Shown here piece by piece: positions 13,404-56,096 of a stretch of 64,000 nucleotides of DNA (positions within the stretch are counted from its first letter, which is position 1; every line of letters starts with the position of its first letter). The position numbers and the translations under genes were made by a program. The stretch is from Myxococcota bacterium. GTDB taxonomy: Bacteria > Myxococcota_A > Polyangia > JAAYKL01. The notes under the pieces were generated by a model. That model did not search any database and was not told the DNA's origin. It saw only the letters and a program-made list of their open reading frames with translations. The stretch is from assembly GCA_028278265.1 (NCBI GenBank), contig JANQET010000013.1, positions 10,681-74,680 of the forward strand, given 5' to 3'.

Positions 13404-13432
13404 ATAGTTTGTTAGTACGGCATCCAAACAAT
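13404..13432. promoter_or_regulatory. Putative ROK/XylR-type operator upstream of the GH26-xyl operon
   Basis: ataGTTTGTT-agtacggca-TCCAAACaat, overlapping an extended -10-like TGgTATATA (13398-13406). Confidence 0.6.
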
Positions 13433-13553
13433 GGTTGTCGATCGAAAACTGATTGAACTGGAGACAACTTGCATGCTTTAATTTGCCGACATCAACGAAC
13501 CGGGCAATGGGGGTGCTTTCGTCCGGATGATTCGGCAAATGAGTGAAGGTGGT

Positions 13554-14789
13554 ATGGCAATGAACACGAAACAAAAGGGTGTAACAGCTGGCCTGGCATT
13601 GGGATTGACCGTGGCGTTCGCCGCAGTGACGTGGGGGTGTGGGGCGGCAGCTCCGGCCGAGCCCACTACACCGGTCGAGTTGGGGCCACCCAAGGCGGTC
13701 GAGCCGAAATTTGTTCCCCCGGACAATAAAATTTTGTTCATCATCGGGCAGGACGTGGAGTCGGTGCGCGAATATACCAAAGCGCTGCCCGATCCCCAAC
13801 CCGGGGGAGTGACGATGTACACCAACATGGTGGTTCACGAGCTCTCCCCCTTTCCTCCGCTCGCCGGGTTGACCCGCGGCGAAGACGAGGATGCGATGGT
13901 CACCGGCACGGCCAATTCTCAAAGCTCCCAAGTCATGGTGCGAGAAAATCCCAACTCAACGCTGGTGATTGGCCTGTACCTGGCCCACGCGGAAAAACAC
14001 GGGTGCTCAACTATGTACCTCGATAAAATCAATAAAGGTGAATATGACGAGTACATCGATGAGATGGCCAACTACCTCAAGTCGCTCAACCGGCCGGTCT
14101 ACCTGCGCATCGGCTACGAGTTTGACGGGTACTGGAACTGCTACAAGCCGGAGCCGCACAAAAAGGCGTTTATCCGCATGGTCAAACGGCTGCGCGAGCT
14201 GGGGGCGGACAACGTCGCTTCAGTCTGGCAGTCAGCCACCTGGCCCTTCGACAACACCGAGTGGGCCCAATGGTACCCGGGGGACGAATACGTAGACTGG
14301 ATCGGCTTTTCCTACTTCCTCGCCGACACCGGTTATCTGGAGAACCTTCCGCCGAATCCGGACCTGGCGCGGGAAAGCCTGTTGGCTTTTGCCCGATCCC
14401 GCAACAAGCCGGTAATGATCGCCGAAGCGTCGGATCAGGGGTACGACAACGAGGACCTGACCCGCAGCGTGATCAACAAAAACGCGATTAAACCACTGAC
14501 CCAGGAGCAAATCTGGGACGGCTGGTACCAGCCGTTCTTCGACTATATTCACGCCAACGCCGACGTCATCAAGGCGGTGGCCTACATCAACTCGGACTGG
14601 GACAGCCAGCCCATGTGGCAGTGCCGCCCGGGAATCCCCGGTGGGCAAGCCGGTTGTACGGACGGATACTGGGGCGACTCCCGGGTGCACGTCAATGAGC
14701 ACATCAAGACGAAGTGGGTCGAGGAGCTGAGCAAAGAGGTTTGGCTCCACGGCAGCCCGGAACTGTTCGGCATACTGGGACTGCGCTAA
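13554..14789 (+). CDS. GH26 endo-beta-1,3-xylanase-like lipoprotein
   Basis: Lipobox TWGC; IGQDVESV, RPVYLRIGYEFDG (acid/base E), WYPGDEYVDWIGFSYF, KPVMIAE (nucleophile), YINSDWDSQ and GYWGDSRV. These motifs match my recollection of marine Vibrio GH26 beta-1,3-xylanases. Confidence 0.85.
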   Translation: MAMNTKQKGVTAGLALGLTVAFAAVTWGCGAAAPAEPTTPVELGPPKAVEPKFVPPDNKILFIIGQDVESVREYTKALPDPQPGGVTMYTNMVVHELSPFPPLAGLTRGEDEDAMVTGTANSQSSQVMVRENPNSTLVIGLYLAHAEKHGCSTMYLDKINKGEYDEYIDEMANYLKSLNRPVYLRIGYEFDGYWNCYKPEPHKKAFIRMVKRLRELGADNVASVWQSATWPFDNTEWAQWYPGDEYVDWIGFSYFLADTGYLENLPPNPDLARESLLAFARSRNKPVMIAEASDQGYDNEDLTRSVINKNAIKPLTQEQIWDGWYQPFFDYIHANADVIKAVAYINSDWDSQPMWQCRPGIPGGQAGCTDGYWGDSRVHVNEHIKTKWVEELSKEVWLHGSPELFGILGLR

Positions 14790-14827
14790 CCCGGGGCACC
14801 CCCACAAATCAAAGAGAGGGCTTTAAG

Positions 14828-16321
14828 ATGGCATTGGTTGCGGGCATCGATTTGGGTACACAGAGCACAAAGGTCGTGGTCTACGATGCGGACAAGAAGG
14901 AAATCGCCTGTCGCGCACAGGCCCCTCACGACATCATCGCCGCTCCGGACGGCACGCGGGAACAGAAGGCGAGCTGGTGGATCGATGCGGTCACTCAGTG
15001 TTTTGCCCAGCTGCCGGAATCCGTCAAGAAGGATATCAAGGCGTTGGGGGTCTCGGGACAGCAGCACGGGTTCGTTCCCCTCTCCGACGGGGGCCAGGTG
15101 CTCTACAACGTCAAGCTGTGGAACGACACCTCCACGGCCAAGGAGTGCGATGAGATTCACCGGGCACTAGGCGGGGACGAGGAGGCGATGCGACTGGCCG
15201 GCAATCCGGTTCTACCCGGTTACACCGCCTCCAAAGTGCTCTGGCTGAAAAAGAACCATCCCAGCATTTTCAAACAAATTGCCACCATCTTGCTGCCCCA
15301 CGACTACCTCAATTTCTACCTCACCGGCGAGCGGGTGATGGAGTACGGCGATGCCTCGGGCACCGGCCTGTTCGACGTGCGCCGACGAACCTGGTGCGAG
15401 CCCCTCTGTCGCGCCATCGATCGGGAAAAGGGCCTCGAGGCCCTATTGCCCCCCTTTGTCGAACCGACCCAACCGGCGGGCCAGGTCAGCGCCAAAGCTG
15501 CCGCTGCACTCGGGATCCCTGCCGGGGCGCTGGTCTCCTGCGGCGGCGGGGACAACATGATGGGCGCGTTCGGTACCGGTGCGGTTAAAAACGGCGTGCT
15601 CGTGCTCAGCCTGGGCACCTCCGGAACGATGTACGGCTTCGCCGATAAACCGATCGTCCCGCCGGGCGGTGAGTTTGCCGCGTTCTGTTCGTCCAGCGGA
15701 GGCTGGCTGCCCCTGGTCTGCACGCTCAACTGCGCCGGTGCGGTGGCCAACGTGCGCGAGATGGTCGGGGTCGAGCTCGACGATTTCGACGGATTGCTCA
15801 CCGGCTCCGAGCCCGGTGCCGACGGTATGATCTGTCTGCCCTATTTCGACGGGGAGCGCACCCCCAATCTGCCGGCGGCCACCGCATCGCTGATGGGCAT
15901 GACGACCAGCAACTTCTGCAAGGAAAACGTGGTCCGGGCCGCGGTCGAAGCGACCGTGTTCGGGCTGAAGATCGGCTACGACGAAATGCGCCGAGCCGGT
16001 ATCCGGGCCAACGAGATTCGCGTGATCGGCGGCGGATCCAACAGCAAGCCCTGGTTACAGATCATCGCCGATATTTTCGAGATGAACGCAGTGGTACCGG
16101 TCGAGCAAGAGGCATGTGCCTTTGGCGCAGCCCTGCAGGCGCTCTTCTGCCGCCAAAATGCCACAGGTGAGCGGATCGCCGTTGAAGACCTGGTCGCCGA
16201 TCACTTACCCTTTGATCCGGACAAGTCGGTCGCCCCGATCGGCGAGAACACCGGTCGCTACGCAGAGATATTCGGTCGCTACGGTGAGCATCTGACCGCC
16301 GTGACACCGCTTTTTCGCTAA
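14828..16321 (+). CDS. xylB: Xylulokinase
   Basis: [40 protein letters not shown] and GGGS (FGGY kinase) motifs; adjacent to xylA. Confidence 0.95.
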
Positions 16322-16341
16322 GGCCAAGAAAGGAAATCAAG

Positions 16342-17679
16342 ATGAGCCCATCCAGCACTGACGCGTACTTTCCCAGCGTCCCCAAAATCGCCTATGAAGG
16401 CCCCAAGTCGGACAACCCGCTGGCTTTCAAATTCTACGATGAGAACCGCGTCATCGGTCAAAAGACCCTCAAAGAGCACCTGCGCTTTGCGGTCTGTTAT
16501 TGGCACACCTTCTGCGGTGACGGTTCGGATCCCTTTGGCATGGGCACCTGGCAGCGACCGTGGGCCGAGCACGCCGATCCGATGGATCGGGCCAAGGCCA
16601 AGATGGACGCCGCCTTCGAGCTTTTCGTCAAGCTGGGCGCGCCGTTCTACGTGTTTCACGACCGGGATATGTCCCCTGAGGGATCCTCGGTGGCCGAATC
16701 GGAGCGCAATCTCAGAACGCTGGTCGAACTGGCCAAGATCAAACAACAGGAGACCGGTATCAAATTGATGTGGGGCACCTGCAACCTGTTTTCCCACCCC
16801 CGTTACATGAACGGGGCGGCGACCAATCCAGATGTCAATGTCATCGCCCACGCCGCAGCCCAGGTCAAAGCCGGCCTGGAGGTGACAGTGGAGCTCGGTG
16901 GGGGTTGTTTTGTCTTCTGGGGCGGACGGGAGGGCTACTCCACCCTGCTCAACACCCAAATGAAGCGCGAGATCGAGCACGTGGGCCGGTTCTTCGAAAT
17001 GGCCCGGGATTACGGCCGGCGGATCGGCTTTACCGGCGATTTCCTGATCGAGCCCAAGCCGATGGAGCCCTCCAAGCACCAGTACGATTTCGACGCGGCG
17101 ACCGCCATCGGATTCTTGCGCCGGTTCGATCTGCACCGGGATTTCAAACTGAACATCGAAGCCAATCACGCCACCCTGGCCAACCACACCTTTGCCCATG
17201 AGCTGCAGACCGCGGCGGACGCGGGCATGTTGGGCAGCGTCGACGCCAACCGGGGAGACTATCAAAACGGTTGGGACACCGACCAGTTCCCCACTGATCT
17301 CTATCAAATCGTCGAAGCGATGATGATTATCTTGGAAAACGGGGGCTTCACCCGCGGTGGCTTGAACTTCGACGCCAAATTGCGACGCAACTCCACCGAT
17401 CTCGAGGATCTGTTCATCGCTCACATCGGCGCAATGGACGCCTTTGCCAAGGGCTTGGAGATTGCCCATCGCGTCATCGAGGACGGCCGCATCCCCCGTC
17501 TCCGCGAGGAGCGCTATCGCTCGTTCGACAGCGGTGTGGGCAAACAGTTCGAAGACGGCGAGCTGACCCTGGAGCAGCTGGCCGACCACGCGGCCAAGAG
17601 CGGGGAGCCGGCCCGCACCAGCGGCAAGCAGGAGTTGATCGAAAACATCATCAACCAAATCTGTTTCAGCGGCGAGTAG
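16342..17679 (+). CDS. xylA: Xylose isomerase (class II)
   Basis: [43 protein letters not shown] and GWDTDQF motifs. Confidence 0.98.
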
Positions 17680-17685
17680 GCCACG

Positions 17686-19299
17686 ATGAACGATAAAGCG
17701 GCCCTGATCCACAATCCGGTTCTCCCCGGATTTCACCCGGATCCATCGATCATTCGCGTGGGTGAGGACTACTACATGGCCACCTCCACCTTCGAGTGGT
17801 TCCCCGGCGTCAAGCTCCATCACTCGCGGGATTTGGCCCACTGGCGCTGTATCGGCTATGCCCTGACGCGAAAGAGTCAACTCGACATGTTGGGCAACAG
17901 CGTCTCCGGAGGCATCTGGGCGCCCTGCTTGTCCCATTGCGACGGGCGGTTCTACCTGGCGTTCACCGATGTGAAAAACCATCTCGGTGGGCCGGACAAG
18001 TCGGTACACACCTTCAAGGACACACACAACTACCTGGTGACCGCCCCGTCGATCACCGGACCCTGGTCCGAGCCCACCTATCTCAACAGCAGCGGATTCG
18101 ATCCCTCCCTATTCCACGACGATGACGGTCGCAAATGGCTGGTCAACATGGTCTGGGACCACCGGCCGGGACGCAACAAATTCGGCGGCATTCTGTTACA
18201 ACAATTCGACGAAGAGCAAGGCCGGCTGGTCGGTCCGATAGAAAAGATCTTCAGCGGAACCGATTTGGGCTGCACGGAGGGGCCCCACCTGTTCAAGCGA
18301 AACGGCTACTACTACCTCATCACGGCCGAAGGGGGCACCGGACTCGACCACGCGGCCACCCTGGCCCGGTCCGAGCAACTCACCGGTCCCTACGAAGTGT
18401 CGCCGATCCATCCGCTGCTGACTTCCAAGGGGAGTGATGATAACACCCTGCAAAAAGCCGGTCACGCCAGTTTGGTCCAATCCCAGTTCGATACCTGGTA
18501 CTTGGCCCATCTCTGCGGACGGCCTCTGGGGCCAAACCGGAGGTGCATCCTGGGCCGGGAATCCGCTCTACAGCGCGTGGTCTGGAATGAGCAGGACTGG
18601 CTCGAGCTGGAGCACGGTGGCAACCACCCCCGTCTCACCGTCGTTGGGCTCCCGGCAACGCCCCAAGCAGTCGAGACGACTGCTGAAATCGAGCACTTCG
18701 ACGGACCCGAGCTGCCGTCGGAGCTCAACAGTTTGCGTGTCCCGATCGACGATAGCTGGGCCAGCCTCACGGACTACCCGGGCCATCTGCGCCTCTACGG
18801 TCGCGAATCGCTACTCTCCAAGCACCGCCAATCGCTGATCGCCCGTCGCTTCGACGCCCTCGAGTTCGAAGCGAGTTGTTCGGTCGAGTTCGAACCGGAC
18901 AGCTTTTTGCAGATGGCCGGGCTGATCTGTTTCTACGACAATGAAAACTTCGTCTACCTGCAGCTGACCCACGACGAGGAACAGGGCAAGGTGCTGGTAC
19001 TGTCCCACAACGACAATGGGCAGTACGATGAACAGCTGATCGCACCCGCATCCGCGTTGGGGTCCGATCCGGTGGAGCTGAGGGTGCGGTTCAAGACAAC
19101 TGAGTTGTCATTTGCCTACCGCGTTGACCAACAGGACTGGCGTTCGGCAGGCCGCCCGTACGACGCGACCAAATTGAGCGACGAATACTGTCGGGAAGGC
19201 TGGTTTACCGGCGCGTTCGTCGGCATCTGTGCGCAAGATCTGAGTGGCCGGCGCCGACCGGCAGACTTCGACTGGTTCGCCTACCGCCGTCAACCGTGA
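17686..19299 (+). CDS. GH43 beta-xylosidase (cytoplasmic) with C-terminal beta-sandwich
   Basis: NPVLPGFHPDPSI, STFEWFPG, WAP, GFDPSLFHDDDG, EGPHL, AEGGT and FTGAFVG motifs; no signal peptide. Confidence 0.93.
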   Translation: MNDKAALIHNPVLPGFHPDPSIIRVGEDYYMATSTFEWFPGVKLHHSRDLAHWRCIGYALTRKSQLDMLGNSVSGGIWAPCLSHCDGRFYLAFTDVKNHLGGPDKSVHTFKDTHNYLVTAPSITGPWSEPTYLNSSGFDPSLFHDDDGRKWLVNMVWDHRPGRNKFGGILLQQFDEEQGRLVGPIEKIFSGTDLGCTEGPHLFKRNGYYYLITAEGGTGLDHAATLARSEQLTGPYEVSPIHPLLTSKGSDDNTLQKAGHASLVQSQFDTWYLAHLCGRPLGPNRRCILGRESALQRVVWNEQDWLELEHGGNHPRLTVVGLPATPQAVETTAEIEHFDGPELPSELNSLRVPIDDSWASLTDYPGHLRLYGRESLLSKHRQSLIARRFDALEFEASCSVEFEPDSFLQMAGLICFYDNENFVYLQLTHDEEQGKVLVLSHNDNGQYDEQLIAPASALGSDPVELRVRFKTTELSFAYRVDQQDWRSAGRPYDATKLSDEYCREGWFTGAFVGICAQDLSGRRRPADFDWFAYRRQP

Positions 19300-19396
19300 G
19301 CGCTGGATGATTCGCTGAGCACCGGATGGTCCGCTGCCATTTATTACGGCTTGCTCCCTCCTTTATTGCACTGTGCACAAATCAGCAGTTTTCTCC

Positions 19397-19455
19397 TTGA
19401 CAAGGATCAAAAAATTGCCTATACAATTAATATGTACGGAGAACAAACAAACTTT
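19397..19455 (+). promoter_or_regulatory. sigma70 promoter plus downstream ROK/XylR-type operator of the GH1 gene
   Basis: TTGACA (19397-19402), 17 nt, TATACA (19420-19425). It is followed by TTAATATGTACGGAGAACAAACAAACTTT (19427-19455), which is 22/29 identical to the reverse complement of the 52011 site. Confidence 0.72.
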
Positions 19456-19537
19456 CGACATAACAGGCAACTTAGCTCGATAAACACTTCCTTAATACTT
19501 TTGAATTTGAAACCGCCAGGAGGACGAGGGACAGAAG

Positions 19538-20938
19538 ATGGAATCAAAGCAGTTTGATCGCCAATTTATCTGGGGTTGCGCAACGTCGGCTTTTCAAATC
19601 GAAGGGGGAGCGAGCGCAGATGGTCGAGGAGAGTCGATCTGGGATCGTTTTTCAAAGAAACCGGGCAACGTTGCCGAAGGGCATGACGGAGACGTGGCCT
19701 GTGATCACTACAATCGATATCGCGGCGATGTCGATTTGATGAAAGAGCTGGGGATGAAGGCCTACCGGTTTTCAATCTCCTGGCCGCGAATTTTGCCGGA
19801 CGGTCGTGGCGCGGTCAATGAAAAGGGACTCAGTTTCTACGACGAGCTGGTCGACGCGCTGCTAGAACGCGAGATCACGCCCTGGGTCACCTTGTATCAC
19901 TGGGATCTGCCCCAAATACTGGAAGACGAGGGCGGTTGGCCCAATCGCAAGACCGCCTATGCCTTTGCCGAGTACACCGAAGCGGTCAGCCGCCGGTTGG
20001 GAGATCGGGTGAAACACTGGATCACCCACAACGAACCTTGGTGCGCGAGCATCCTCGGCTACCAGACCGGCGAGCACGCGCCGGGGATCAAGGATTGGCC
20101 CAAGGCCTTGGCGGCCAGTCATCACCTCATGCTGTCCCACGGATTGAGCGTGGGTATTCTACGCCGCAATTCCCCCGATTCGCTCATCGGCATCACCAAT
20201 GCCCTGATGCACGTCCAGCCCGCTTCGGGAAGTTACGAGGATCGGGAGGCCTACCGGCATCTCGACGGCACGGTCAATCGCTGGTTCATGGATCCCCTGT
20301 ACCGCCGATGCTATCCCGCTGACATCGTGGCCGATCACCGGGAATCGGGATACATCTCCCGTGAGGGATTGTCGTTCGTCTATCCCGGGGACATGGATTT
20401 AATTGCCGCACCGATCGATTTTCTCGGGGTCAACTACTACTCGCGGCAAATCGCCCGCAGCACGGCGATTCCCGAATCGAAGAACGCGCCGCGCGATATT
20501 TTCGCCCTGCCGCCGGATCAGCGGACGGACATGGGTTGGGAGGTCTATCCCGACGGGTTGACCCGCGTGCTCGAGCGGGTTCATCGGGAGTACCGGCCCG
20601 GTCAAATCTACGTCACCGAAAACGGCGCTGCGTACGGAGAAAAGCCCGGTGCGGACGGGCGAGTACCCGATTCCCGCCGCTGTGTGTACCTGCGCGATCA
20701 CCTGCTCGCCGCCCATTCGGCCACCGAATCCGGGGTGCCCTTGCTCGGCTATTTCGTCTGGTCTTTACTGGACAATTTCGAGTGGGCGTTCGGCTATACC
20801 AAGCGGTTCGGCATTGTCTGGGTCGACTTCGAAACCCAACAGCGAACGATCAAAGACAGCGCCTACTGGTATCGCGAAGTCATCCGCAACAACGCAGTCT
20901 CCCTCAACGGCGCGTTCAACAACCCCAACCGGTACTAA
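19538..20938 (+). CDS. GH1 beta-glucosidase
   Basis: WGCATSAFQIEG, YRFSISWPRI, THNEPW (acid/base), VNYY, YVTENG (nucleophile) and WSLLDNFEWAFGY motifs. Confidence 0.96.
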   Translation: MESKQFDRQFIWGCATSAFQIEGGASADGRGESIWDRFSKKPGNVAEGHDGDVACDHYNRYRGDVDLMKELGMKAYRFSISWPRILPDGRGAVNEKGLSFYDELVDALLEREITPWVTLYHWDLPQILEDEGGWPNRKTAYAFAEYTEAVSRRLGDRVKHWITHNEPWCASILGYQTGEHAPGIKDWPKALAASHHLMLSHGLSVGILRRNSPDSLIGITNALMHVQPASGSYEDREAYRHLDGTVNRWFMDPLYRRCYPADIVADHRESGYISREGLSFVYPGDMDLIAAPIDFLGVNYYSRQIARSTAIPESKNAPRDIFALPPDQRTDMGWEVYPDGLTRVLERVHREYRPGQIYVTENGAAYGEKPGADGRVPDSRRCVYLRDHLLAAHSATESGVPLLGYFVWSLLDNFEWAFGYTKRFGIVWVDFETQQRTIKDSAYWYREVIRNNAVSLNGAFNNPNRY

Positions 20939-20939
20939 G

Positions 20940-21509
20940 TTACTCCTCAAAAAGCCAGGCCTCGACAGCACCGAGATCAACGGGGCCTGAACCGATCGTT
21001 TTTGCTTCGGTCGTCATGTAGATGTAGTCCACACCGGGGACCGGTTGGTATTGTCCTCCCCCTTCGACCATCAACGAAATGAGAATGTAGTAGTCTCCCG
21101 GATCGAGTTTGTCGACCGGGGGAACGGCCATTTTCATCGCCGCCATCGTTACCGAAAGCGGCTTGTCCACACCGATGTCCGGCGTTTCCACCGCCGGTGC
21201 GCCGATGCCGGCGGGCATCTGATCGGTGGTCATCTCCGTTAAAAACGCCATGTTGATCGTTGCCGGCGTAGCATCGAATGTGGCGGGCACACTGAGCAAC
21301 ACGGTGACGTCATGGCTATCGGCCGGGCTGGTATCGCTATCCGTATCGGTGTCGGTATCGGTGTCACTGTCCGTATCCGTATCCGTATCTGCATCAGCCC
21401 CCGAGTCGGGCTCCACGTCATCGTCATCGCCGCAGCCCATGGCCGATAGGCCGAAGAGCAACACCAGTACGAGTAATCCGTTGAGATTATTGGTCGTTAG
21501 TGGGCCCAT
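20940..21509 (-). CDS. Lipoprotein with Asp-Thr repeat linker and small beta-sandwich domain
   Basis: Lipobox AMGC followed by DDDD and (DT/DS)n; GGAGG-like RBS. Confidence 0.8.
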   Translation of the reverse strand: MGPLTTNNLNGLLVLVLLFGLSAMGCGDDDDVEPDSGADADTDTDTDSDTDTDTDTDSDTSPADSHDVTVLLSVPATFDATPATINMAFLTEMTTDQMPAGIGAPAVETPDIGVDKPLSVTMAAMKMAVPPVDKLDPGDYYILISLMVEGGGQYQPVPGVDYIYMTTEAKTIGSGPVDLGAVEAWLFEE

Positions 21510-21737
21510 TTCCCCCTCCTTTTTTAGCGGTGAACCCCGTTCTATTTTAGAATTACTGAAATTTATAGCAGAGATTCCCGCACGGGCCAGGCAGGGGGAT
21601 CGTTTTGTCGAATCGCCGGGGGAAATCGTCCATATTGCCCTCTCTTCACATTAATTAAAAAGCGGATCGGTCGTTATTAGTCAGCAGGTGGTGGGAATCC
21701 GGCTCGCGTCTATTGGGGATTGTCGTTGAGCAGAAAA

Positions 21738-23694: not shown

Positions 23695-23742
23695 ACAACG
23701 ACGAGCAGAAATCGTCTCACATAGTAGGGTGTTGAGCAGTTA

Positions 23743-25716: not shown

Positions 25717-25730
25717 TGGCGGTCGCGATT

Positions 25731-43485: not shown

Positions 43486-43495
43486 CGCAAACAGC

Positions 43496-44416: not shown

Positions 44417-44455
44417 GGGCCGATCTTGCACAAGTTGACGGTTGTGTCCAGAGCC

Positions 44456-45438: not shown

Positions 45439-45542
45439 TTTCGCTACATCCTCCGCGATCGTGGGTGCCACCTATTCATCTGCACAGTAGAAAAATGGGG
45501 AAACTTGTCAAGTCGGCCCCCCGAATCCCCATTTGTTTAGAG

Positions 45543-46406: not shown

Positions 46407-46410
46407 CGGC

Positions 46411-47160: not shown

Positions 47161-47356
47161 CGGGCGGTGTCCTCCTCACTATTCGGTGGGCAACGGCGTT
47201 AATACACCGTTGCGCCACGGGTAATCAAGGAGCCAAGTTGGAACAACTACCAGTACGTCGTCAATAGATGTTCCGCCGCGACTGCTCTTTTTGACGGGGT
47301 GTGGACCGAAAAATTCAAGGGTTTTCGGTGGATGGCCGGGATGGGGTTGCCGCCGG

Positions 47357-48043: not shown

Positions 48044-48058
48044 GACGTCGATACTCCT

Positions 48059-48625
48059 TTAAAACAGATCCGGGTTGCCACCGAGCTGTTCGATGTGATG
48101 CTTGGCCCATTCGGAGAGCTTGAACGCGGTGGTGCCGGTCTCATCATAGGTCACGCTGTCGGGAAAGTGCTCGAGCACCGCGTAGAAGCCGTTGAGCGCC
48201 ATCTGCTTGACCGTCGGCAGGGTCGCCTCATCGACCAACTCGTTCTCATAGATCGCCTTGAGTCGCGTCGCCGCGTAGAATTGAGCCTCTCCGGTCTTCT
48301 CCTTGACCAGCACGGTGGCCCAGCAGTAGAAGGCCAGAATATGCGCCTGGGGTTCCTCCAGACCGTTGTCGTCCGCATAGATCAGCGAGCGCCAGCGAAA
48401 GCCCGGGTCATCGCCCAAGGCGATAAAAATCGGGTCCTCGACAAACATATTGTTGGGATCGGTCATCACCGATTCGTCGGGATAGATGCCCATTTTGACC
48501 GAGTGGAGCTCGAACGTCAGTGTGGAGAGGTCGATTGGGACGATGTACTCGGCCTCGTCCATATCGCAACTGCACAGGGCCATTTGCAGAACACACACCA
48601 GAAAAATTGTTAGATAGTGCCTCAT
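48059..48625 (-). CDS. Helical lipoprotein of unknown function in the GH-barrel operon
   Basis: Lipobox LCSC; GGAGG RBS; 9 nt after the GH-barrel gene stop. Confidence 0.8.
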   Translation of the reverse strand: MRHYLTIFLVCVLQMALCSCDMDEAEYIVPIDLSTLTFELHSVKMGIYPDESVMTDPNNMFVEDPIFIALGDDPGFRWRSLIYADDNGLEEPQAHILAFYCWATVLVKEKTGEAQFYAATRLKAIYENELVDEATLPTVKQMALNGFYAVLEHFPDSVTYDETGTTAFKLSEWAKHHIEQLGGNPDLF

Positions 48626-48634
48626 GGCAGCCTC

Positions 48635-51600
48635 CTAAAAGCTCACATTCATGTACATCACAAACTCGTATTCATTGCCCAAGCGATCCTCCCCTTGAGC
48701 GACCGTGCATTGGGGGATTGTATCGATGCAATGGGGATATCGCTCGGAGTGCTGATCGAGCCAGCGCATCTGATATCGGGCGCCCAAGCGGGTGTAGGGA
48801 ATGAACAGCTTGGGCAGGCTCATCCCATAGGAGAGATCGCCCATCACCTGCATCGGGAAGGTGAGGTCGAAATCCCGATGGTAGTCGTAGGGGCCGAAAT
48901 CGTTGAATTTGACAAAGGCGTGCAGCTGCAGCTTGTCCCACATCAGCCGGGCCTCGGCGCCGTAACGGGTGAGCAGCCGGGATTCGGGCCGGTAGCCCTG
49001 GATTTGCCCGACGTAGAGATCGCTGACGATGTGCAGATTCCAGGCGGGATTGAAGAACAGCTTGGCCCGCCCGTCCCATTCGTTTTTGGCCGGCGGCGCG
49101 CCATCAAAGGCGAAGATGTAGTATTCCGCACTGATCGCGGTGGTGGCATCCCGCTGAGTGGGCTGGATTTTGTAGACGAAGTCCAGGGCAGCGGCAAACG
49201 GCGCATCTTCTTTCTCGTCATTGTCCCAATCCCAGAACCAGGTTTTGGGAGTGGGATCGTACATCAGCACCAGCTCGAAGCCGTAGGTTTCCCGGTTGCC
49301 CAACACGGCGAACGGATCGTCCAGAATGTTTCGCGGCTTGATCCCGGGATAGTAGACGCCGTTGTACAGCCGGCCGCGCAACCGCTCGTCCGTGGGCAGG
49401 GCCCCCTCCAGCGGTCGCTGGAACAGCACGTTGGGCGCGATGAAGAACTTGTTCAGCTGGTAGCGCAGACCGGTCAACGCGTTGAACTGGTTACCCCGTC
49501 CGTCGGCCTTGAGCGTCCAGGGCACCATCGCCGCGGCGTTGTCCGGTCCCCCGTCGGCGACCAGCCCCTGGTAGGCCCCCTGCACGTACCAGTGAATCGG
49601 TCCTACATCCAGGGTCAACCGGGCCTTGGCCCCCAGGGTGTCGAGGAGGTAGATCTCATCGGTCAAAAAGGCGTAGTCGGTGCCCATGTAGCCTGTGCCC
49701 TTGGCGTCGCGCACAGCGACGAATTTCTCGCCCAGCTTGTCCGAACCGGCGAAGATGCCGCCCAGAGACAACCCCAGGGCGCCCTTGCGGTACCCCAAAA
49801 AGAGCGTGGTCTTGCGGGTCTTGGGTTCGGGGATAATGCGCGCCGTGGCACTGGCCTCCTGTTTGGTGAGATCCTCCTGGTGCATCAGGGCAAAGGAGAA
49901 CGGGCCGAACTGCCGGTGGTACTTGGCCAGCACCATCGGGTTGGCGCTCCAGTAGAGCTGCGGTCCAAAGGCGACCTTGAGCCCCTTGAGGGCCTTTTTG
50001 GCATCCAGCACCATGCCGAACGGGGCGCTGGCGTTGTAGATGTCGATGTTCTCGCCGTAAAAGGCTTCCCGGTAGAGTCCGAAGAAGTCCCCTTCGGCGC
50101 CCCAGTGATAGTGGCCGGTGCGGTAGTACCCGTCCAGTTTGAAATAGTCGTTGTCCCAGCTCAGCTCTGATTGGTAGACTTTGATCCGCTCGTTGTCGGT
50201 GAGCATGACCGGGTTACCGTCAGCGTCCTCGATTTCGATGGGGGTGCCTCGGCTCTCGTAGAACAGCTTGTCGATTTTGTTGGTCGGCACGTTGCCCAGG
50301 ACATTCAGCGACACACGCCCTTCGAGTTGGGGAGACGGATTGACCTCGAAATCGAGGAAGAACGATTCCATGTGATCGAACTTGGGCGGCTCGGGTGTGT
50401 CTTCACCCATCGATCGGTCCCCATCGGCGTAGATCATTTCGAACTTCATCTGCGCGCCGACGCCGAACATCTGGGACAATCGGTTCACTCCCACGTTGGC
50501 CATCGCCGCCTCGTACTTGATCCCCTTCTCTTTAGGGTCGAGTTTGGCGAAGTGCTGGCGGATGGCGGTCACATCGACTCCCTCGGCATAGGGATCCAGG
50601 GCAAAGGCCTCCTGCAGCACGTAGTAAGCGGTGCGGGGATAGAGCTCGTACTTGCCTTGCTCATCGGACGGTCCCTTGGCGCAGATCCCCATCCACTCCT
50701 CGTTCATGTTGTTGGTCCCGTCCTTCCAGTCGAACTGGTAACCGGCAGCGGCCCAGGAGGCGGCCGGATCGTGTTTGTCCAGGTTGAGAATCTGGCGGTA
50801 CTTCCACCATCCATCAGACCACTCGAAGACAAATCCACCCAGTGCGATGCCGTGGTTTCCCTTGCCGTGGGTCTGCTCGAGCACGTCCGCCCATTGCCAC
50901 CGCAGGTAGTTGGCCTGAGACAGGTGATCCTCTTTTTTGTCCTGCGCGTGAAACGCGTCTGCACCAAATTCGGTCAACAGTACCGGCAGACCCAGCTTTT
51001 TTTGCGCTCGGAGCCACAGATCCCCGAAGGAAACCCCGCGGTAGGTGTTGGTGCCCAGAATTTCGAGATTCGGACAGTGCTTCTTGATCAGGTCGATGTA
51101 CAACAGATCCCCGTTGGCGATCACTGCCGGATGGTTGGTGTCCCGCTTTTTTATCTCGCCGATAATCTCGTTGTACATGGTGTACAGGTGCACCGCGGCG
51201 GCGCGGGTCGCTTCGTCCTGGGGACCTTTGCTGACGTTGGGGGGCAGCAGGTGGTAGTTGTTCTCGTTGCCCAGCAGCCAGAACAGCAGACCCGGCGTGT
51301 TCTTGTATTTTTCCACCATCGCGATCACGTCCGCCTTGATCGCTTCGCGGGTCGCCGGATCGGAGTAGTCCACCTGGAACCGGGTCGACCCGTTGACCAG
51401 AAAGCCGTAGCGACCGGCGAGGTGGTTGACCGAGGTGAAAATGCCCCAGTTCTGATAGATGAAGGTGATCCATTTGGCCGGGATTCCCACCTCAACGCGA
51501 ATCGCGTTGACCCCCATCTCCTTGAGCATCGTCATGTCGCGACCGAGCACCTCGGCGATGAAGGCGTCCGGTTTGCTCCACAGATCGTAGCGATAGTTCT

Positions 51601-51916
51601 CACCGATGGGGACATAGCCCCAATTCATCCCTTTGACGATGAAATCCCGGCCGTTGACCTGCAGCTTGTAACCGCTTTGATCGTGAACCACGGCAACGGT
51701 TTTGGCGCTACCGGGAGGTGGGGGGGGAGCCTGCTCCTGTGCCTCTTCGGCTGTGGGTTCGGCGGCTTCGGTGTCACCCGCGGCGTCCGGGGGTTGTTCC
51801 GCAGTTTTTTCCGCAGGTTGTTCTGCAGGCTGTTGGGGGTTGTTTTGTGCGTCGGCCAGAGAGACTGCCGGACAGATCAACAAAACAGCGATGAATGGTC
51901 GTAAAAATCGGGGCAT
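48635..51916 (-). CDS. Clan GH-A (GH2/GH158-like) TIM-barrel glycoside hydrolase fused to a predicted outer-membrane beta-barrel
   Basis: Signal peptide and Pro/Gln/Ala/Glu linker. GH motifs MGVNAIR, WLLGNENNY (acid/base), GTNTYRG, LTEFGAD (nucleophile), GGFVFEWSDGWWK and NEEW.G. About 600 C-terminal aa of aromatic amphipathic strands ending in the beta-signal YMNVSF. Confidence 0.82.
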   Translation of the reverse strand: MPRFLRPFIAVLLICPAVSLADAQNNPQQPAEQPAEKTAEQPPDAAGDTEAAEPTAEEAQEQAPPPPPGSAKTVAVVHDQSGYKLQVNGRDFIVKGMNWGYVPIGENYRYDLWSKPDAFIAEVLGRDMTMLKEMGVNAIRVEVGIPAKWITFIYQNWGIFTSVNHLAGRYGFLVNGSTRFQVDYSDPATREAIKADVIAMVEKYKNTPGLLFWLLGNENNYHLLPPNVSKGPQDEATRAAAVHLYTMYNEIIGEIKKRDTNHPAVIANGDLLYIDLIKKHCPNLEILGTNTYRGVSFGDLWLRAQKKLGLPVLLTEFGADAFHAQDKKEDHLSQANYLRWQWADVLEQTHGKGNHGIALGGFVFEWSDGWWKYRQILNLDKHDPAASWAAAGYQFDWKDGTNNMNEEWMGICAKGPSDEQGKYELYPRTAYYVLQEAFALDPYAEGVDVTAIRQHFAKLDPKEKGIKYEAAMANVGVNRLSQMFGVGAQMKFEMIYADGDRSMGEDTPEPPKFDHMESFFLDFEVNPSPQLEGRVSLNVLGNVPTNKIDKLFYESRGTPIEIEDADGNPVMLTDNERIKVYQSELSWDNDYFKLDGYYRTGHYHWGAEGDFFGLYREAFYGENIDIYNASAPFGMVLDAKKALKGLKVAFGPQLYWSANPMVLAKYHRQFGPFSFALMHQEDLTKQEASATARIIPEPKTRKTTLFLGYRKGALGLSLGGIFAGSDKLGEKFVAVRDAKGTGYMGTDYAFLTDEIYLLDTLGAKARLTLDVGPIHWYVQGAYQGLVADGGPDNAAAMVPWTLKADGRGNQFNALTGLRYQLNKFFIAPNVLFQRPLEGALPTDERLRGRLYNGVYYPGIKPRNILDDPFAVLGNRETYGFELVLMYDPTPKTWFWDWDNDEKEDAPFAAALDFVYKIQPTQRDATTAISAEYYIFAFDGAPPAKNEWDGRAKLFFNPAWNLHIVSDLYVGQIQGYRPESRLLTRYGAEARLMWDKLQLHAFVKFNDFGPYDYHRDFDLTFPMQVMGDLSYGMSLPKLFIPYTRLGARYQMRWLDQHSERYPHCIDTIPQCTVAQGEDRLGNEYEFVMYMNVSF

Positions 51917-52010
51917 GATCACACCTGTTGCGGGGTCCATTTTGATTCAACGGGTTAAAGGATTAAAAACGACATGTTACCAGATTTTCAAAAATTGGGA
52001 CTGGGCCCAT

Positions 52011-52058
52011 TTAGTTTGTTCGTTCATCGAACATACTAATTTCGATCACTATTGTCAA
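52011..52058 (-). promoter_or_regulatory. sigma70 promoter overlapped by ROK/XylR-type palindromic operator
   Basis: TTGACA (52058-52053), 17 nt, TATGTT (52035-52030). Palindrome TTAGTTTGTTCG-ttcat-CGAACATACTAA at 52011-52039. Confidence 0.8.
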
Positions 52059-52153
52059 GAGACGAAAGGTCTCGTTGCCGATTCACCTTGAACAGACAAA
52101 AAGGCAGTATACCCAGACCGAAATCCCGGGGCAAGTAACAGGGAGGGGAAGTA

Positions 52154-52723
52154 CTAATACAGGGCGAATGCCACATCCCAAAAGATATCGACGAGTGTTC
52201 CCAAATGGTACCACTGGGTACCGCTGTGGAACCAGGCGTCACCGTCGTCATACACATCCGCGTTGGTGCCGATAACGCCCAGCTTGGTACTTCCGGTGAT
52301 CGACCCATTTGGCCGTATCTCGATCCAGTAGCGATCGAAAGGAGAAACAGCCGTATCGTCGAGCGGAAAACAGAGCAAGTAGTAGAGATTGTCCGCCGGA
52401 AGACTCACGGTCCACGTTTGGAGTGGCAGACCGGTCTCCTCGTGAATCAGCGACACTGTGTGGGGGCCGACCTCCTGTCCCTTTTCACCGATGAAAAACT
52501 GGACGGCCCGCAAGGTGGAGAGGGGAAGGACGAACGTCTGGCCGATTCGTTCATTGCTCCCGCTGATACTGAACATCGCGTTGAGGGTTTGCAGATTGTC
52601 CAACACGGGAACTCCCTCACAGGGATCTGCGTCAGTGTCGGTGTCGGGATCTGTATCCGTATCCGTGTCCGAATCAGTATCGGCGTCCGCGTCGGTTGTC
52701 TTTGTTTTTATAATTGACTTCAT
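52154..52723 (-). CDS. Asp-Thr repeat protein with beta-sandwich domain; lacks a signal peptide (possibly 5'-truncated)
   Basis: MKSIIKTKTT directly followed by (DA/DT/DS)n; IGQTF...YWIEI pattern. Confidence 0.55.
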   Translation of the reverse strand: MKSIIKTKTTDADADTDSDTDTDTDPDTDTDADPCEGVPVLDNLQTLNAMFSISGSNERIGQTFVLPLSTLRAVQFFIGEKGQEVGPHTVSLIHEETGLPLQTWTVSLPADNLYYLLCFPLDDTAVSPFDRYWIEIRPNGSITGSTKLGVIGTNADVYDDGDAWFHSGTQWYHLGTLVDIFWDVAFALY

Positions 52724-52751
52724 TCGAAGATTGGTGGTTTAAACGTAGTGG

Positions 52752-52780
52752 GTATGTTTGTTAAATGGCCGAATAAACGA
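52752..52780. promoter_or_regulatory. Putative autoregulatory operator of the ROK gene
   Basis: GTTTGTT-aaatggccg-AATAAAC (52756-52778), about 20 nt before the ROK start codon. Confidence 0.65.
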
Positions 52781-52797
52781 GAGAAAAGGGGTTAGCT

Positions 52798-54024
52798 TTG
52801 CGAACTGCTGATTCAACTCACATGCGCGCGCTGAACGCCAATTTAATTCTCAAATTGATTTGGAAAGAGAAGAGCATTTCAAGGGCGGAAATCGCACGAC
52901 TCACCGGTTTGGCCCGCTCGACCGTGTCGGAAATTGTCGGTCAGCTGCTCGACCACGGCTTGATCCTCGAGATCGGCACGGCCAAATCGGAGATCGGGCG
53001 TCGGCCGATCATGCTCGTTTTCAACTACGATGCGTTCGGTATCATCGGCATCGACATGGGCGTTACCCATGTGGGGGTGTCAATGGTCAATCTCGGGGGA
53101 GAGGTCAAGTGCTGGCGACAAGTCGAGCACCAGGTTCGGCCGGACCCGCAGGGAACCATCGAGCGCATGAAATCACTGGTTGACGAATGCATCACCGAGA
53201 CCAATTTCAGCCCGGAGCGGCTGGTCGGTATCGGTATCTCCGTACCCAGCCCGGTAGATCCCGGCGATCCGGCGCAATGCCTTTCACCGCTGATTCTGCC
53301 CCATTGGAAGGATTACGATCTGCGGCAGATCTTCGGCCACGCCTACAACACCTCCATTTACGTGGACAACGACGCCAATCTCGGTGCATTGGCAGAGCAT
53401 TGGTGGGGGGCGGGCAAAGGGGGCGAGCACTTGGCGTTCGTCAAAATCGGCTCGGGTATCGGCGCCGGACTGGTCTTCAACGGGGAGATCTATCGCGGCG
53501 CGCGGGGTATGGCGGGCGAGATCGGTCACATGATCATCGATTCCACCGCCTCGCAAACCCTGTTCGGCCACAAGGGCGGACTGGTCACCCTCATCGGATC
53601 CGAAGCCATCGTGGAGAATGTTCAGGCGAGACTGCCCGAGTTTCCCAAGAGCGTGCTCAAGAGCAATGGCGTGAGTGTTCGGGCGGTGGCCGATGCGGCG
53701 CTCGCCGATGATCCCCTGGCCCGCCAGGTCGTTCGCGACGTGGGGTATCACCTGGGTATCGCGGTCGCCAACCTGCTCAATCTGTTCAACCCGTCGATCG
53801 TCGTTCTCGGTGGGGCGATCACCCAAGCCGGTGAGACGCTCATTGAGGACATGAGCGAGGTGGTCAAGGAGCGAACCCTCTGGGAATCGATCTCCGACTC
53901 AAAGCTTCTGATCAGCACCCTCGGCGAGCAGAGCATCTCGGTAGGCGCAGCGACCCAAGTGCTGCACGCCGCCCTGGATGACATGTCGCTCTTCCCACTC
54001 AGCCGCCAAGCCACGCGGCGTTAA
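52798..54024 (+). CDS. ROK family (XylR/NagC-like) transcriptional repressor
   Basis: N-terminal HTH SRAEIARLTGLARSTVSEIV and GRRP; ROK motifs DNDANLGALAE, GSGIGAG and GMAGEIGH. Confidence 0.94.
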   Translation: MRTADSTHMRALNANLILKLIWKEKSISRAEIARLTGLARSTVSEIVGQLLDHGLILEIGTAKSEIGRRPIMLVFNYDAFGIIGIDMGVTHVGVSMVNLGGEVKCWRQVEHQVRPDPQGTIERMKSLVDECITETNFSPERLVGIGISVPSPVDPGDPAQCLSPLILPHWKDYDLRQIFGHAYNTSIYVDNDANLGALAEHWWGAGKGGEHLAFVKIGSGIGAGLVFNGEIYRGARGMAGEIGHMIIDSTASQTLFGHKGGLVTLIGSEAIVENVQARLPEFPKSVLKSNGVSVRAVADAALADDPLARQVVRDVGYHLGIAVANLLNLFNPSIVVLGGAITQAGETLIEDMSEVVKERTLWESISDSKLLISTLGEQSISVGAATQVLHAALDDMSLFPLSRQATRR

Positions 54025-54073
54025 CCATCGGCTATTTCATCGGCTGTTGAGCTTTGTATTTCCTGATTTGACA

Positions 54074-54100
54074 GGGCAACCGCGGGGGGATTGCCCCTAC
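54074..54100 (-). repeat. GTAG-family REP-like palindrome overlapping the GH16 stop codon
   Basis: Minus strand reads GTAG-GGGCAATCCCCCCGCGGTTGCCC. Confidence 0.7.
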
Positions 54101-55089
54101 AGACGTTTTAATACGCGGATGTAGTCGACTTCCATCACCTGGGGAAACTCGGTGCTCGAATCCGGATCACCCACGTAGTTGCCGCCCACGCTGACGTTGA
54201 TATTGATGTAGAAATCGTGGTCGAAGACCCAGTTGCCCTGGGCCGAGATGTTGTTCTCGGTGAAGGTGGAGTACTTGGTACCGTCGACGTACCACATCAC
54301 GCGATCCGCTTCCCATTCAATCGCGAACACGGAAAAACGCTCGGCAAACGTATCGTTGCCCGGCAGGGCGTAGTTGCGTGAGAAGCAGTTCCCACCACTG
54401 TAGCCCGGACCGTGCATGCTGCCGTAGATTCGCCCCGGATCGTTCCCCTTGCACTCCATGATATCGATCTCACCGCAGCCCGGCCAGACCGTGGGGTCCT
54501 GTTGGTACTCGGCGCCAATCATCCAAAACGCGGGCCAGATGCCCTGCCCTTGTGGGAGCTTGATGCGGGCCTCGATGCGACCGTAAGTTGTGGCAAAGGT
54601 CTCTCGGGTGGTCAGGCGGGCCGAGGTGTACTGGCGGCCGCCGAAGTCCTCCCGTCGGGCGATGATCTTGAGTTTGCCGTCCTCGACCTTTACGTTGTAA
54701 CCGCGGCTGGTGTAGAACTGCAGCTCCTGGTTGCCCCAACCGCCGTCGAATCCGGTACCGGTGTCAAAGGACCATTTGTCTTCATCAACTGCTGAGCTAT
54801 TGAATTCATCGTGCCAGGCCAGTTCCCAGCCGTCGGGGATCTCATCGGTGTCGAAATCGTCGTCATCGTCATCCCCGGAAGTATCGTCGTCATCGTCATC
54901 GCCGGTGTCGTTGTCGTCATCGTCGTCGTCTGCGGAATCATCATCATCGTCGGTGCCGGCGTCTTCGTAGGTAAAGTCGCCCTGGCAGCCGAGCGCCCAA
55001 AGAGTGAAGACGAGAAGGAGAAAGCATTGGGCGACTCGGCGCACAGGGGGGAGACTTATAAGCGTGCTAAGATCAGCCATTAAGTTCAT
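54097..55089 (-). CDS. GH16 laminarinase-like (beta-1,3-glucanase) lipoprotein with poly-Asp linker
   Basis: Lipobox ALGC; WHDEF, GWGNQELQFY, YTSARL, GIWPAFWM, WP.CGEIDIME catalytic motif and MEVDYIRV. Confidence 0.93.
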   Translation of the reverse strand: MNLMADLSTLISLPPVRRVAQCFLLLVFTLWALGCQGDFTYEDAGTDDDDDSADDDDDDNDTGDDDDDDTSGDDDDDDFDTDEIPDGWELAWHDEFNSSAVDEDKWSFDTGTGFDGGWGNQELQFYTSRGYNVKVEDGKLKIIARREDFGGRQYTSARLTTRETFATTYGRIEARIKLPQGQGIWPAFWMIGAEYQQDPTVWPGCGEIDIMECKGNDPGRIYGSMHGPGYSGGNCFSRNYALPGNDTFAERFSVFAIEWEADRVMWYVDGTKYSTFTENNISAQGNWVFDHDFYININVSVGGNYVGDPDSSTEFPQVMEVDYIRVLKRL

Positions 55090-55137
55090 TATAACAGACT
55101 AAGTATGACCAATAACTACGAGGGAAGTGCCTCATAA

Positions 55138-55902
55138 CTACTTTTTCCACTGAACATCTTTAATATAGACAATAACCTCGCGTTTTTCCTCGATCTCGGG
55201 TACGGACCAGGCGAAGGCGCCGACAATCGATTCGTACGTCTCTTCAGAGATATCAATCGAGTATTCTTTGGGGGAATCGGTCAGGGTTACCTCATCGTAG
55301 ACCTCGAACGGATCCTCGTGAGGGGGATCCTCAGTGGGATGCTGCATCCCCACGATCAACCGAGCCTCCTGCGGGGCGGTCTCGGCCCAGGCGGTAACGA
55401 CCACTTCAGTGGCGCCCGGTTCAATTTTCATGCCCGGTTCGAGCCCCCAGTTCCCGTTACCAAAGAGCCAGAACACACCGCCCCATTCATCGCCCGTCCA
55501 AGTGAACATGTGGCAGCGGGCGTCATCCGGATCTTCGGGACACTCGTCTGCGCTCATATCGTTTGGACTGCCTCCGGACATAAAGCCCCCATTGTCATAG
55601 TAGTCGCTGACGTAAAACGGCAGCTTGACCACTTCGTCTCCGTCGCTATCGGAATCGCTGTCCGAGTCGGAATCGGAATCGGAGTCGGTATCACCGTCAC
55701 CGTCTGAATCGGCGTCGCTGTCACCGTCGCCGCCGGAGTCCTCACACTCCCCATCGGCGTTGCAGATCTGGCCATCGGCACAATCGGAGTTGTTGTCACA
55801 CCCCTCGCCTGTATCATCTCCGCCGCTGCATCCCAGCGATAGGGCAAACAGCCCCAATATAAAACTGAATAATACGACCAACTGATTTGCCGATTTTTTC
55901 AT
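55138..55902 (-). CDS. Lipoprotein with small Cys-rich module, Asp-Ser linker and CBM-like domain
   Basis: Lipobox SLGC, CDNNSDCADGQICNADGEC, (DS)n, then WGGVFW..NWG..PG and GAFAW aromatic beta-sandwich. Confidence 0.78.
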   Translation of the reverse strand: MKKSANQLVVLFSFILGLFALSLGCSGGDDTGEGCDNNSDCADGQICNADGECEDSGGDGDSDADSDGDGDTDSDSDSDSDSDSDSDGDEVVKLPFYVSDYYDNGGFMSGGSPNDMSADECPEDPDDARCHMFTWTGDEWGGVFWLFGNGNWGLEPGMKIEPGATEVVVTAWAETAPQEARLIVGMQHPTEDPPHEDPFEVYDEVTLTDSPKEYSIDISEETYESIVGAFAWSVPEIEEKREVIVYIKDVQWKK

Positions 55903-56038
55903 GATGTCACCTCTTTTTTATTGGCCCACGTGAGTCTGGCTCAGATGCAATTTTACACTACAACAGCGTTTTGCGCGATACTCGCAGCCATTTGCGCGGT
56001 CATCTGTGCCAATCAATTTGCTCAGCCCGTGCTCAGCA

Positions 56039-56096
56039 TAGTTCGTTTCACAAACGAACTAAATTCATGGTAGGGTATTTTGCCAAAAGTTGTCAA
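56039..56096 (-). promoter_or_regulatory. sigma70 promoter plus downstream ROK/XylR-type operator for the lipoprotein-GH16 pair
   Basis: TTGACA (56096-56091), 18 nt, TACCAT (56072-56067). Perfect-arm palindrome TAGTTCGTTT-cac-AAACGAACTA at 56039-56061. Confidence 0.75.

Follow-up and report, generated by a model that had tools for sequence, protein, structure and literature searches.

Five operator-like palindromes among beta-1,3-glycan genes of a Myxococcota bacterium: a predicted ROK regulon for beta-1,3-glucan use, probably reaching the xylose and xylan genes

The stretch of DNA analysed here, called the window throughout, comprises 64,000 nucleotides of a Myxococcota bacterium (assembly GCA_028278265.1, contig C503:10681-74680); the assembly has 7.67 Mb in 516 contigs, 58.5% G+C, and is 90.65% complete. 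The window carries genes for the use of xylose and of beta-1,3-xylan-like and beta-1,3-glucan-like polymers, one regulator of the ROK family, and five palindromic sites of the form GTTTGTT-N9-AACAAAC. An earlier note, made from the sequence alone, had proposed that these sites tie the genes into a single regulon under the ROK protein. Here, we ask how far that proposal holds and treat the sites, s1 to s5, as predicted operators. Positions are those of the window, and the relevant features are listed below; expectation values are given as E, and the Protein Data Bank is abbreviated as PDB.

13410..13434, no strand: operator-like site s1, 5' of GH26-xylB-xylA-GH43; rank 11 of 3452 intergenic regions
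13527..14789, plus strand: GH26 beta-1,3-xylanase-like gene, first in the xyl operon; PDB 2ddx_A, beta-1,3-xylanase XYL4, E 1.9e-50; Pfam GH26
14714..16321, plus strand: xylB, xylulokinase; TIGR01312, 516.9 bits (cut-off 380.25), match from residue 44
16342..17679, plus strand: xylA, xylose isomerase; TIGR02630, 688.1 bits (cut-off 533.25)
17686..19299, plus strand: GH43 beta-xylosidase-like gene; Pfam GH43, 325.2 bits, and GH43_C2, 210.4 bits
19398..19426, plus strand: promoter-like TTGACA-17-TATACA of the GH1 gene, read directly
19429..19453, no strand: predicted operator s2 (GH1); 17.8 bits in the register scan, 17.9 bits across intergenic regions (rank 4 of 3452)
19538..20938, plus strand: GH1 beta-glucosidase-like gene; Pfam GH1, 546.9 bits
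47357..48625, minus strand: two small genes (228 and 188 residues) 3' of the GH barrel gene, without a Pfam family
48635..51940, minus strand: GH158-like TIM-barrel glycosidase of 1101 residues; PDB 9oro_A, GH158, E 1.3e-5; weak Pfam GH2_C
52013..52037, no strand: predicted operator s3 (GH barrel); 25.7 bits, rank 1 of 3452, the strongest in the genome
52154..52723, minus strand: 189-residue gene, divergent from the ROK gene, without a Pfam or NCBIfam family; a single paralogue on contig C428, 42% identity
52755..52779, no strand: predicted operator s4 (ROK gene), within the 74-bp divergent region; 16.8 bits, rank 12 of 3452
52798..54024, plus strand: ROK-family regulator with an N-terminal winged helix-turn-helix (HTH); Pfam ROK and HTH_24
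54097..55089, minus strand: GH16 laminarinase; PDB 3azx_A, laminarinase, E 1e-70
55138..55902, minus strand: lipoprotein-like gene of 254 residues, first of the GH16 operon, without a Pfam family
56036..56063, no strand: predicted operator s5 (lipoprotein-GH16); rank 10 of 3452, best register 56036-60

The enzymes flanking the sites are those that the earlier note had named, with the GH26 protein matching XYL4 (E 1.9e-50) and xylA and xylB above their NCBIfam equivalog cut-offs. One gene start deserves particular attention. The longest open reading frame (ORF) at 12285-13931 (minus strand, 548 residues; weak DUF4380 match at residues 261-320) spans the first site and 400 nucleotides of the GH26 gene, and the GH26 start codon is fixed by a paralogue on contig C513 that is 66.5% identical across 418 of 420 residues. 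Because the paralogue fixes the start that this ORF overlaps, we take the upstream part of the ORF to be spurious and s1 to be intergenic; the ORF would be real in its downstream part at most, and gene callers may mis-start it. The true start of xylB probably lies near 14800, and the genes for the 228- and 188-residue proteins probably share the operon of the GH barrel gene. The likeness of the 1101-residue barrel protein to a GH158 endo-beta-1,3-glucanase is distant. For the 254-residue lipoprotein, the Atlas returned galactose-binding-like and CBM clusters with scores of at most 0.86, below 0.9, which should be read as leads only.

All five sites are present at the positions first reported, with the following numbers of mismatches to GTTTGTT and AACAAAC: 0 + 2 (13407-13429), 3 + 0 (19430-19452), 0 + 1 (52014-52036), 0 + 1 (52756-52778), and 1 + 2 (56041-56063). 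The GH1 and GH-barrel sites are indeed identical at 22 of 29 positions (19427-19455 and the reverse complement of 52011-52039, both in gene orientation). For s1 and s5, the best registers under the orthologue-derived matrix described below are shifted by +4 and -4 nucleotides, respectively: s1 scores 17.0 bits at centre 13422 versus 10.5 at the earlier centre of 13418, and s5 scores 17.2 bits at centre 56048 versus 12.3 at the earlier one. Such echo registers arise because the half-site has a 4-nucleotide periodicity. Read in the shifted register, s1 shows the inner CGG/CCA bases that are characteristic of glucan-type sites. Within s5, 5' of the lipoprotein gene, there is also a perfect 10+3+10 palindrome (56039-56061) with an N5 spacing like that of Bacillus XylR.

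Three of the sites lie on or just 3' of a promoter of the TTGACA-17/18 type, as had been claimed; a promoter scan called those of s3 and s5, and that of s2 was found by reading. The s3 promoter (TTGACA-17-TATGTT, 52058 to 52030, minus strand) has its -10 hexamer inside the site, the s5 promoter (TTGACA-18-TACCAT, 56096 to 56067, minus strand) ends 4 nucleotides before the site, and s2 starts 3 nucleotides after the -10-like hexamer of TTGACA-17-TATACA. The scan made no call at s1, s2, or s4; the s2 hexamer, TATACA, fails the scan's rule of T at position 6. There is a TTGACA near s1 (13369-13374), and s4 lies about 20 nucleotides 5' of the ROK start codon. Placement on or just 3' of the -10 hexamer is typical of repressors that act by blocking RNA polymerase.

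The regulator has the architecture of the ROK family, a winged HTH (HTH_24, 29.5 bits, cut-off 21.9, residues 17-56) followed by a sugar-kinase-like domain (Pfam ROK, 169.5 bits, cut-off 22.9, residues 83-386), and its ORF is intact. No other gene of the assembly combines ROK and HTH domains; the second ROK match belongs to a kinase-like ORF of 292 residues, and a six-frame search of the 90.65%-complete assembly found no second ROK regulator. In the databases, the two nearest homologues share 62% and 61% identity with the window protein; a large set at about 50% comes next, some of which are source-labelled Myxococcota, Anaeromyxobacter, Bacteroidetes, or Longimicrobiales; within same-family genomes, nothing closer than 31% identity was found. 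Among structures, it matches 1z05 (E 5.8e-43) ahead of Mlc (about 1e-34) and XylR 4ija (1.5e-21). Escherichia coli NagC and Mlc are the best named family matches and have the same domain order, but the window protein is below every NCBIfam equivalog cut-off, and far below these two (NagC, 218 bits where 650 are required; Mlc, 166.7 where 530 are required), and the regulon and motif differ.

A zinc-binding cysteine cluster, CxCGxxGC, after the GEIGH segment is characteristic of the ROK family without being a formal criterion of membership, and Mlc and NagC depend on it. The window protein lacks the cluster, with T, F, and G in place of its cysteines (residues ~240-262). The three cysteines are kept in 14 of 22 aligned homologues, and at least two are missing in the other 8 (the window protein, P0002-P0006, P0013, and P0030), including the two closest, which suggests a cysteine-less subclade of ROK regulators.

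Because an idealised palindrome would be derived from the earlier note's own sites, a motif source outside the genome was used, namely 80 metagenomic loci with ROK orthologues of 41-61% identity. These were found by an alignment-based metagenome scan with 22 homologues, used in place of a single-protein search of genome contigs that had returned only relatives of at most 35% identity. The orthologous group, that is, the ROK proteins of beta-1,3-glucan loci, is defined here by full-length similarity of about 40% or more and a conserved recognition helix. In the 300 nucleotides 5' of the orthologue genes, spacers of 9 and 5 alone were enriched. Eight of those upstream sites served to seed a palindromic matrix, which after iteration settled on 70 sites in 49 of the 80 loci (62 sites with at least 20 bits). 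The core of this matrix, CTTTGTTCG-N5-CGAACAAAG, is sharply palindromic and has the geometry of GTTTGTT-N9-AACAAAC.

The spacing of this motif is strict. There were 66 matches of at least 18 bits at the native spacing, 12 and 28 at spacings altered by 4 nucleotides in either direction, and 0-2 at other spacings. All matches of at least 14 bits at the +/-4 spacings overlap a native-spacing site, being half-site repeats with the 4-nucleotide period, and the N5-type matches in the orthologue loci are likewise echoes of N9 sites (43/43). Outside the training set, the surroundings of ROK orthologues (37-49% identity) in same-phylum genomes were scanned, and 24 of these 29 loci contain a site of at least 18 bits. 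Of 75 orthologue loci, 17 show a site no more than 450 nucleotides 5' of the ROK gene. The recognition-helix segment, RSTVSEIV or RSTVSAIV, is kept across the 22 aligned homologues, so that the matrix can be transferred to the window genome. The window protein shares with the group the HTH segment, the GH16 neighbour, the operator core, and the degree of identity (41-62%).

When the orthologue matrix was run over the 3452 intergenic regions of the genome, of which 32 lie in the window, the five sites ranked 1, 4, 10, 11, and 12 (hypergeometric p 3.7e-8). Fifteen regions reached 16 bits, against 1.9 +/- 1.3 in 20 dinucleotide-preserving shuffles; the motif is thus not equally frequent in unrelated AT-rich intergenic DNA, a concern that the earlier note had itself raised. 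With up to three mismatches allowed, the idealised 8+8 palindrome, AGTTTGTT-Nx-AACAAACT, has 35 genome-wide matches at a spacer of 9 and 23 at a spacer of 5, compared with 7-23 at each of 19 further spacers. The window contains six of the N9 matches, namely the five noted sites and one inside a coding sequence.

The 23 N5-spaced matches are an excess over about 12, and we considered whether they form a separate regulon. This was rejected: the adjoining genes are miscellaneous (holin-like, ferredoxin, uncharacterised), and the N5 matches of the orthologue loci are echoes. As a separate observation, each of the two paralogues of the 254-residue lipoprotein (33% identity; L115, contig C223 near 17570, and L109, contig C359 near 19581) has a near-identical N5-type element of about 27 nucleotides directly after a TTGACG-17-TATnnT promoter, to which the ROK matrix gives 10.6 and 2.2 bits, respectively.

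What surrounds the orthologues bears on the glucan genes directly. Window proteins were compared with the 80 ROK-orthologue loci by tblastn. GH16, whose gene in the window ends 72 nucleotides from the ROK stop codon, was found in 61 loci, orthologues of the GH158-like barrel (44-48% identity) in 18, GH1 orthologues (50-58% identity) in 6, and homologues of the lipoprotein in 6; homologues of the 228- and 188-residue proteins stand beside ROK orthologues in three loci each. A typical order is operator, secreted protein, ROK, GH16, and an MFS_2 or ATP-binding cassette (ABC) transporter, Pfam-confirmed in four loci. There are also GH1-barrel operons, with a site upstream where these genes lead; a site precedes the GH1 gene in two of the three loci in which its 5' end is present. 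Because their orthologues cluster with ROK orthologues and the same palindrome elsewhere, the GH1, barrel, ROK, and lipoprotein-GH16 genes would form one regulon, and the assignment to it of the GH1 gene, 32 kb away, is supported by this comparison. The single regulon of the earlier note is thus well supported in its glucan part and only moderately in its xylan part.

The genome-wide scan, which had been expected to reveal the missing sugar transporters, yielded one candidate. The site ranked 9 of 3452 lies on contig C273, after a TATAAT hexamer and before the ribosome-binding site that serves a GPH/MFS_2 symporter gene. MFS_2 genes adjoin GH16 in the orthologous loci, 26 of which contain partial matches to the C273 protein.

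The xylose and beta-1,3-xylan arm requires more caution, as its link to the ROK protein is seen only in this genome. The genome has nine further GH26-like paralogues (25-66% identity; contigs C513, C390, C43, C491, C318, C212, C204, C190, and C57), an unusually large family for one genome. Three of the ten GH26-like upstream regions (window, 17.0 bits; C491, 15.3; C318, 13.7) are among the best 39 positions of the 7.67-Mb genome, and the best matches of the C491 and C318 proteins are the xylanases AlXyn26A and XYL4. The full-length C491 protein had 2-118 matches per genome in seven relatives (at least 46 in six of them) to its N-terminal part, which made that search uninformative; with the catalytic part as the query, no GH26 catalytic domain was found in these seven at E 1e-15 or better. 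Residues ~30-190 of this protein (L113, 6414-8309) match 46-118 ORFs per genome in six relatives and 2 in G011, and this N-terminal part seems to be an acidic linker or a module shared by very many secreted proteins.

Six relatives of the same family have a xylA that is 63-66% identical to that of the window. In three of their six xylA loci (G016, G019, and G011), the order is ROK(xylR-like)-xylB-xylA-GH43; in the window genome, the GH26 gene occupies the xylR position. The relatives' xylR-like ROK belongs to the same protein family as the window regulator and would control the orthologous xyl operon, but the two are only about 30% identical, and its best match in the assembly is the window regulator itself; an xylR orthologue was not found in this assembly (90.65% complete). 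The xylR-type operators (L249 of G016, L250 of G019, L251 of G011, and L252 of G006) are conserved and share the spacing and outer half-site of the window sites, but their inner bases differ (TAAGT... versus TTCGG... in window-type sites). In G006, the operator lies directly before xylB, and the only ROK matches of that genome are on other contigs.

The earlier note had likened the sites to the XylR operator of Bacillus, and this is borne out for the half-site but not for the spacing, the adjacency to xylAB, or orthology. The xyl operator of B. subtilis has ten palindromic base pairs on each side of five central ones (PMC12034463), and the validated XylR sites of Anaerocellum bescii have the same form, with 10-bp arms around 5 central base pairs (PMC12285236). 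The GTTTGTT/AACAAAC half-sites (PMC12034463, PMC12285236) and a promoter-adjacent repressor position are common ground with the window, as is, probably, control of xylA/xylB. The window sites are 4 bp wider than the Bacillus operator, with 9 bp rather than 5 between the 7-mers (PMC12034463), and the window ROK gene lies about 35 kb from xylA, is not adjacent to xylAB, and is not an xylR orthologue.

Thermotoga maritima BglR (TM0032) is likewise an autoregulated ROK repressor of beta-glucan genes with a palindrome of about 23 bp near the promoter, and it is released by glucose or a beta-linked disaccharide (PMC3553997); by analogy, the window protein may have an effector of this kind. The validated BglR operator (Table 1 of PMC3553997) is unlike the window motif, and the BglR regulon is one operon rather than dispersed loci and has no xylan genes. 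According to the same source, the effectors are glucose and cellobiose for BglR, which serves laminarin and beta-glucosides, and xylose and glucose for XylR (PMC3553997). Because each of these responds to glucose plus its own sugar, a ROK protein that senses both sugar types has a precedent. On these comparisons, the window protein is a predicted ROK repressor that would work like BglR or XylR and is probably a member of neither group. No ROK regulator tied to GH16/GH158 laminarin loci was found in the literature searched, which did not cover most subscription journals or databases such as RegPrecise, and a literature search with the motif string returned unrelated papers only.

Our main reading, which we consider rather likely, assigns all five sites as operators to the one ROK repressor of the genome, where they would serve the glucan set and probably also the xylose and xylan genes. 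Control of the glucan genes by the ROK protein through these sites is very likely; for the xyl and GH26 genes, such control has an even chance or slightly better. Several findings weigh against this reading, beginning with the xylan arm. GH26, xylB, xylA, and GH43 occur in none of the 80 orthologous ROK loci. In 39 ROK-bearing genomes, xylA was not found at E 1e-50 or better. No site accompanies the seven GH26 loci of five such genomes (best score, 6.9 bits) or the C513 paralogue of the window GH26 gene (66% identity). There might, then, be two regulators, the window ROK acting on the glucan genes only (s2-s5 and C273) and the s1, C491, and C318 sites belonging to an unassembled xylR-type ROK paralogue or to another factor. 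The xylR-like gene that heads xylB-xylA-GH43 in three of the six relatives' loci and the G006 operator before xylB would fit this explanation, as would the lack of any orthologous ROK locus tied to xyl or GH26 and a completeness of 90.65%, which means that a tenth of the genome may be missing. Moreover, the glucan-ROK matrix gives 10.4-16.5 bits to the relatives' operators, which are alike in half-site and spacing, and is therefore unable to tell whose operator s1 is. We nevertheless regard two regulators as unlikely, given that the six-frame search shows no second ROK regulator, that a GH26 gene stands in the xylR position, and that s1 in its best register has the glucan-type inner CGG/CCA bases; in addition, the absence of a GH26 catalytic domain from the seven relatives searched implies that the GH26 operators were not inherited with a shared xylR regulon.

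The remaining objections concern the sites and the regulator themselves. Only s3 is strong, and s1, s2, s4, and s5 score 16.8-17.9 bits versus 20-43 for most orthologue sites, although the two sets were scored against different base-composition backgrounds. About 2 of the 15 intergenic matches of at least 16 bits are expected by chance, and several equally high matches adjoin genes unconnected with sugars, namely those for an ECF sigma factor, peptidases M28 and M14, and dihydroorotate dehydrogenase; some of the other high-ranking matches, beside unrelated or uncharacterised genes, are probably false. At L119, the locus of the nearest orthologue (61% identity), the upstream region reaches only 7 bits. 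A matrix refined on the genome's own intergenic regions was rejected, as it did no better than its spacer-shifted controls (information content 21.6 versus 16.1-21.7 in eight of them) and drifted to generic AT-rich palindromes equally with wrong spacers. The scores of s1, s2, s4, and s5, which fall in the range of the matches beside unrelated genes, and the drift of the refined matrix would suit the view that only s3, and perhaps s4, is functional and that the rest are AT-rich promoter look-alikes passing a loose palindrome filter. We think this quite improbable: 5 of the best 12 intergenic regions fall in one 64-kb window, the count of 15 far exceeds the shuffled 1.9, four of the five sites are 5' of genes whose orthologues are syntenic with ROK orthologues, and s2 and s3 agree at 22 of 29 positions. 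The missing zinc-site cysteines mean that the activity of the regulator is not assured, and one could imagine a decaying protein whose operators are relics without present function. Here, too, the probability is very low, because the 8 of 22 homologues without at least two cysteines (48-61% identity) are full-length and keep the HTH, as in a viable cysteine-less subclade, and the window ORF is intact. No more credit can be given to a Bacillus-type XylR that responds to xylose and has xylAB as its primary target and the glucan genes as secondary ones, which the GTTTGTT half-site shared with the B. subtilis operator and A. bescii XylR (PMC12034463 and PMC12285236) and the perfect N5-spaced palindrome of s5 might suggest. 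The N9 spacing in the orthologue loci, where every N5 match is an echo, argues against it, as do the position of the gene beside GH16 and about 35 kb from xylA, the identity of about 30% to the relatives' xylR-like proteins, and the ranking of 4ija behind 1z05 and Mlc.

If the five sites are indeed operators of the single ROK repressor, a dimer or tetramer would bind on or just 3' of the -10 hexamers and block RNA polymerase, and a sugar released from the polymer, of the glucose or laminaribiose type to judge from the enzymes, would release it. Through s4, the repressor would also control its own gene. The protein would be a member of a widespread, unnamed orthologous group that travels with GH16, the GH158-like barrel, GH1, a surface lipoprotein, and a GPH/MFS_2 or ABC transporter; here, this gene set would be split over about 37 kb, with the transporter on another contig, and the regulon would probably have been extended to GH26-xylB-xylA-GH43 and to the GH26 xylanase-like genes on C491 and C318. 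How the extension came about can be proposed tentatively, and we rate the following history as possible but somewhat doubtful: the lineage lost its xylR-type ROK and gained a beta-1,3-xylanase gene in its place, and a horizontally spread, cysteine-less glucan ROK took over the xylose and GH26 promoters and now senses both product types. What the two paralogous repressors have in common, half-site and spacing, would have made such a regulon capture possible.

Three further observations concern the surroundings. A gene for a gingipain-type peptidase C25 (56395-58716, minus strand) and one for a peptidase S46 (58886-61255, plus strand) adjoin the glycan locus, and neither has a ROK-type site. On contig C24, L102 carries a minus-strand gene (415-2529) for a protein of 704 residues with two CBM31 modules and a peptidase M64 domain. 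At a distance of 2.4 kb, a ROK-type site of 17.6 bits stands before a gene for a 339-residue Asp/Ser-repeat protein, and the two genes do not share an operon. CBM31 is a family known from a beta-1,3-xylanase. The sole public run that contains the stretch 51000-56200 is X1, which is labelled a coral metagenome and may be the source of the assembly; no RNA run is listed for it.

For this ROK group, which occurs in Myxococcota-type, Gemmatimonadota-type, and other uncultured bacteria, the analysis supplies a predicted operator, a predicted regulon, and a probable class of effector. It also links a GH158-like barrel, two small uncharacterised proteins, and a lipoprotein family to beta-1,3-glucan use, and the motif can be used to predict transporters and enzymes of laminarin use in metagenome-assembled genomes. 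The window may, moreover, be a natural case in which two paralogous ROK regulons merged after the loss of one regulator; if the capture is true, both algal beta-1,3-glycans would be switched on together by one repressor.

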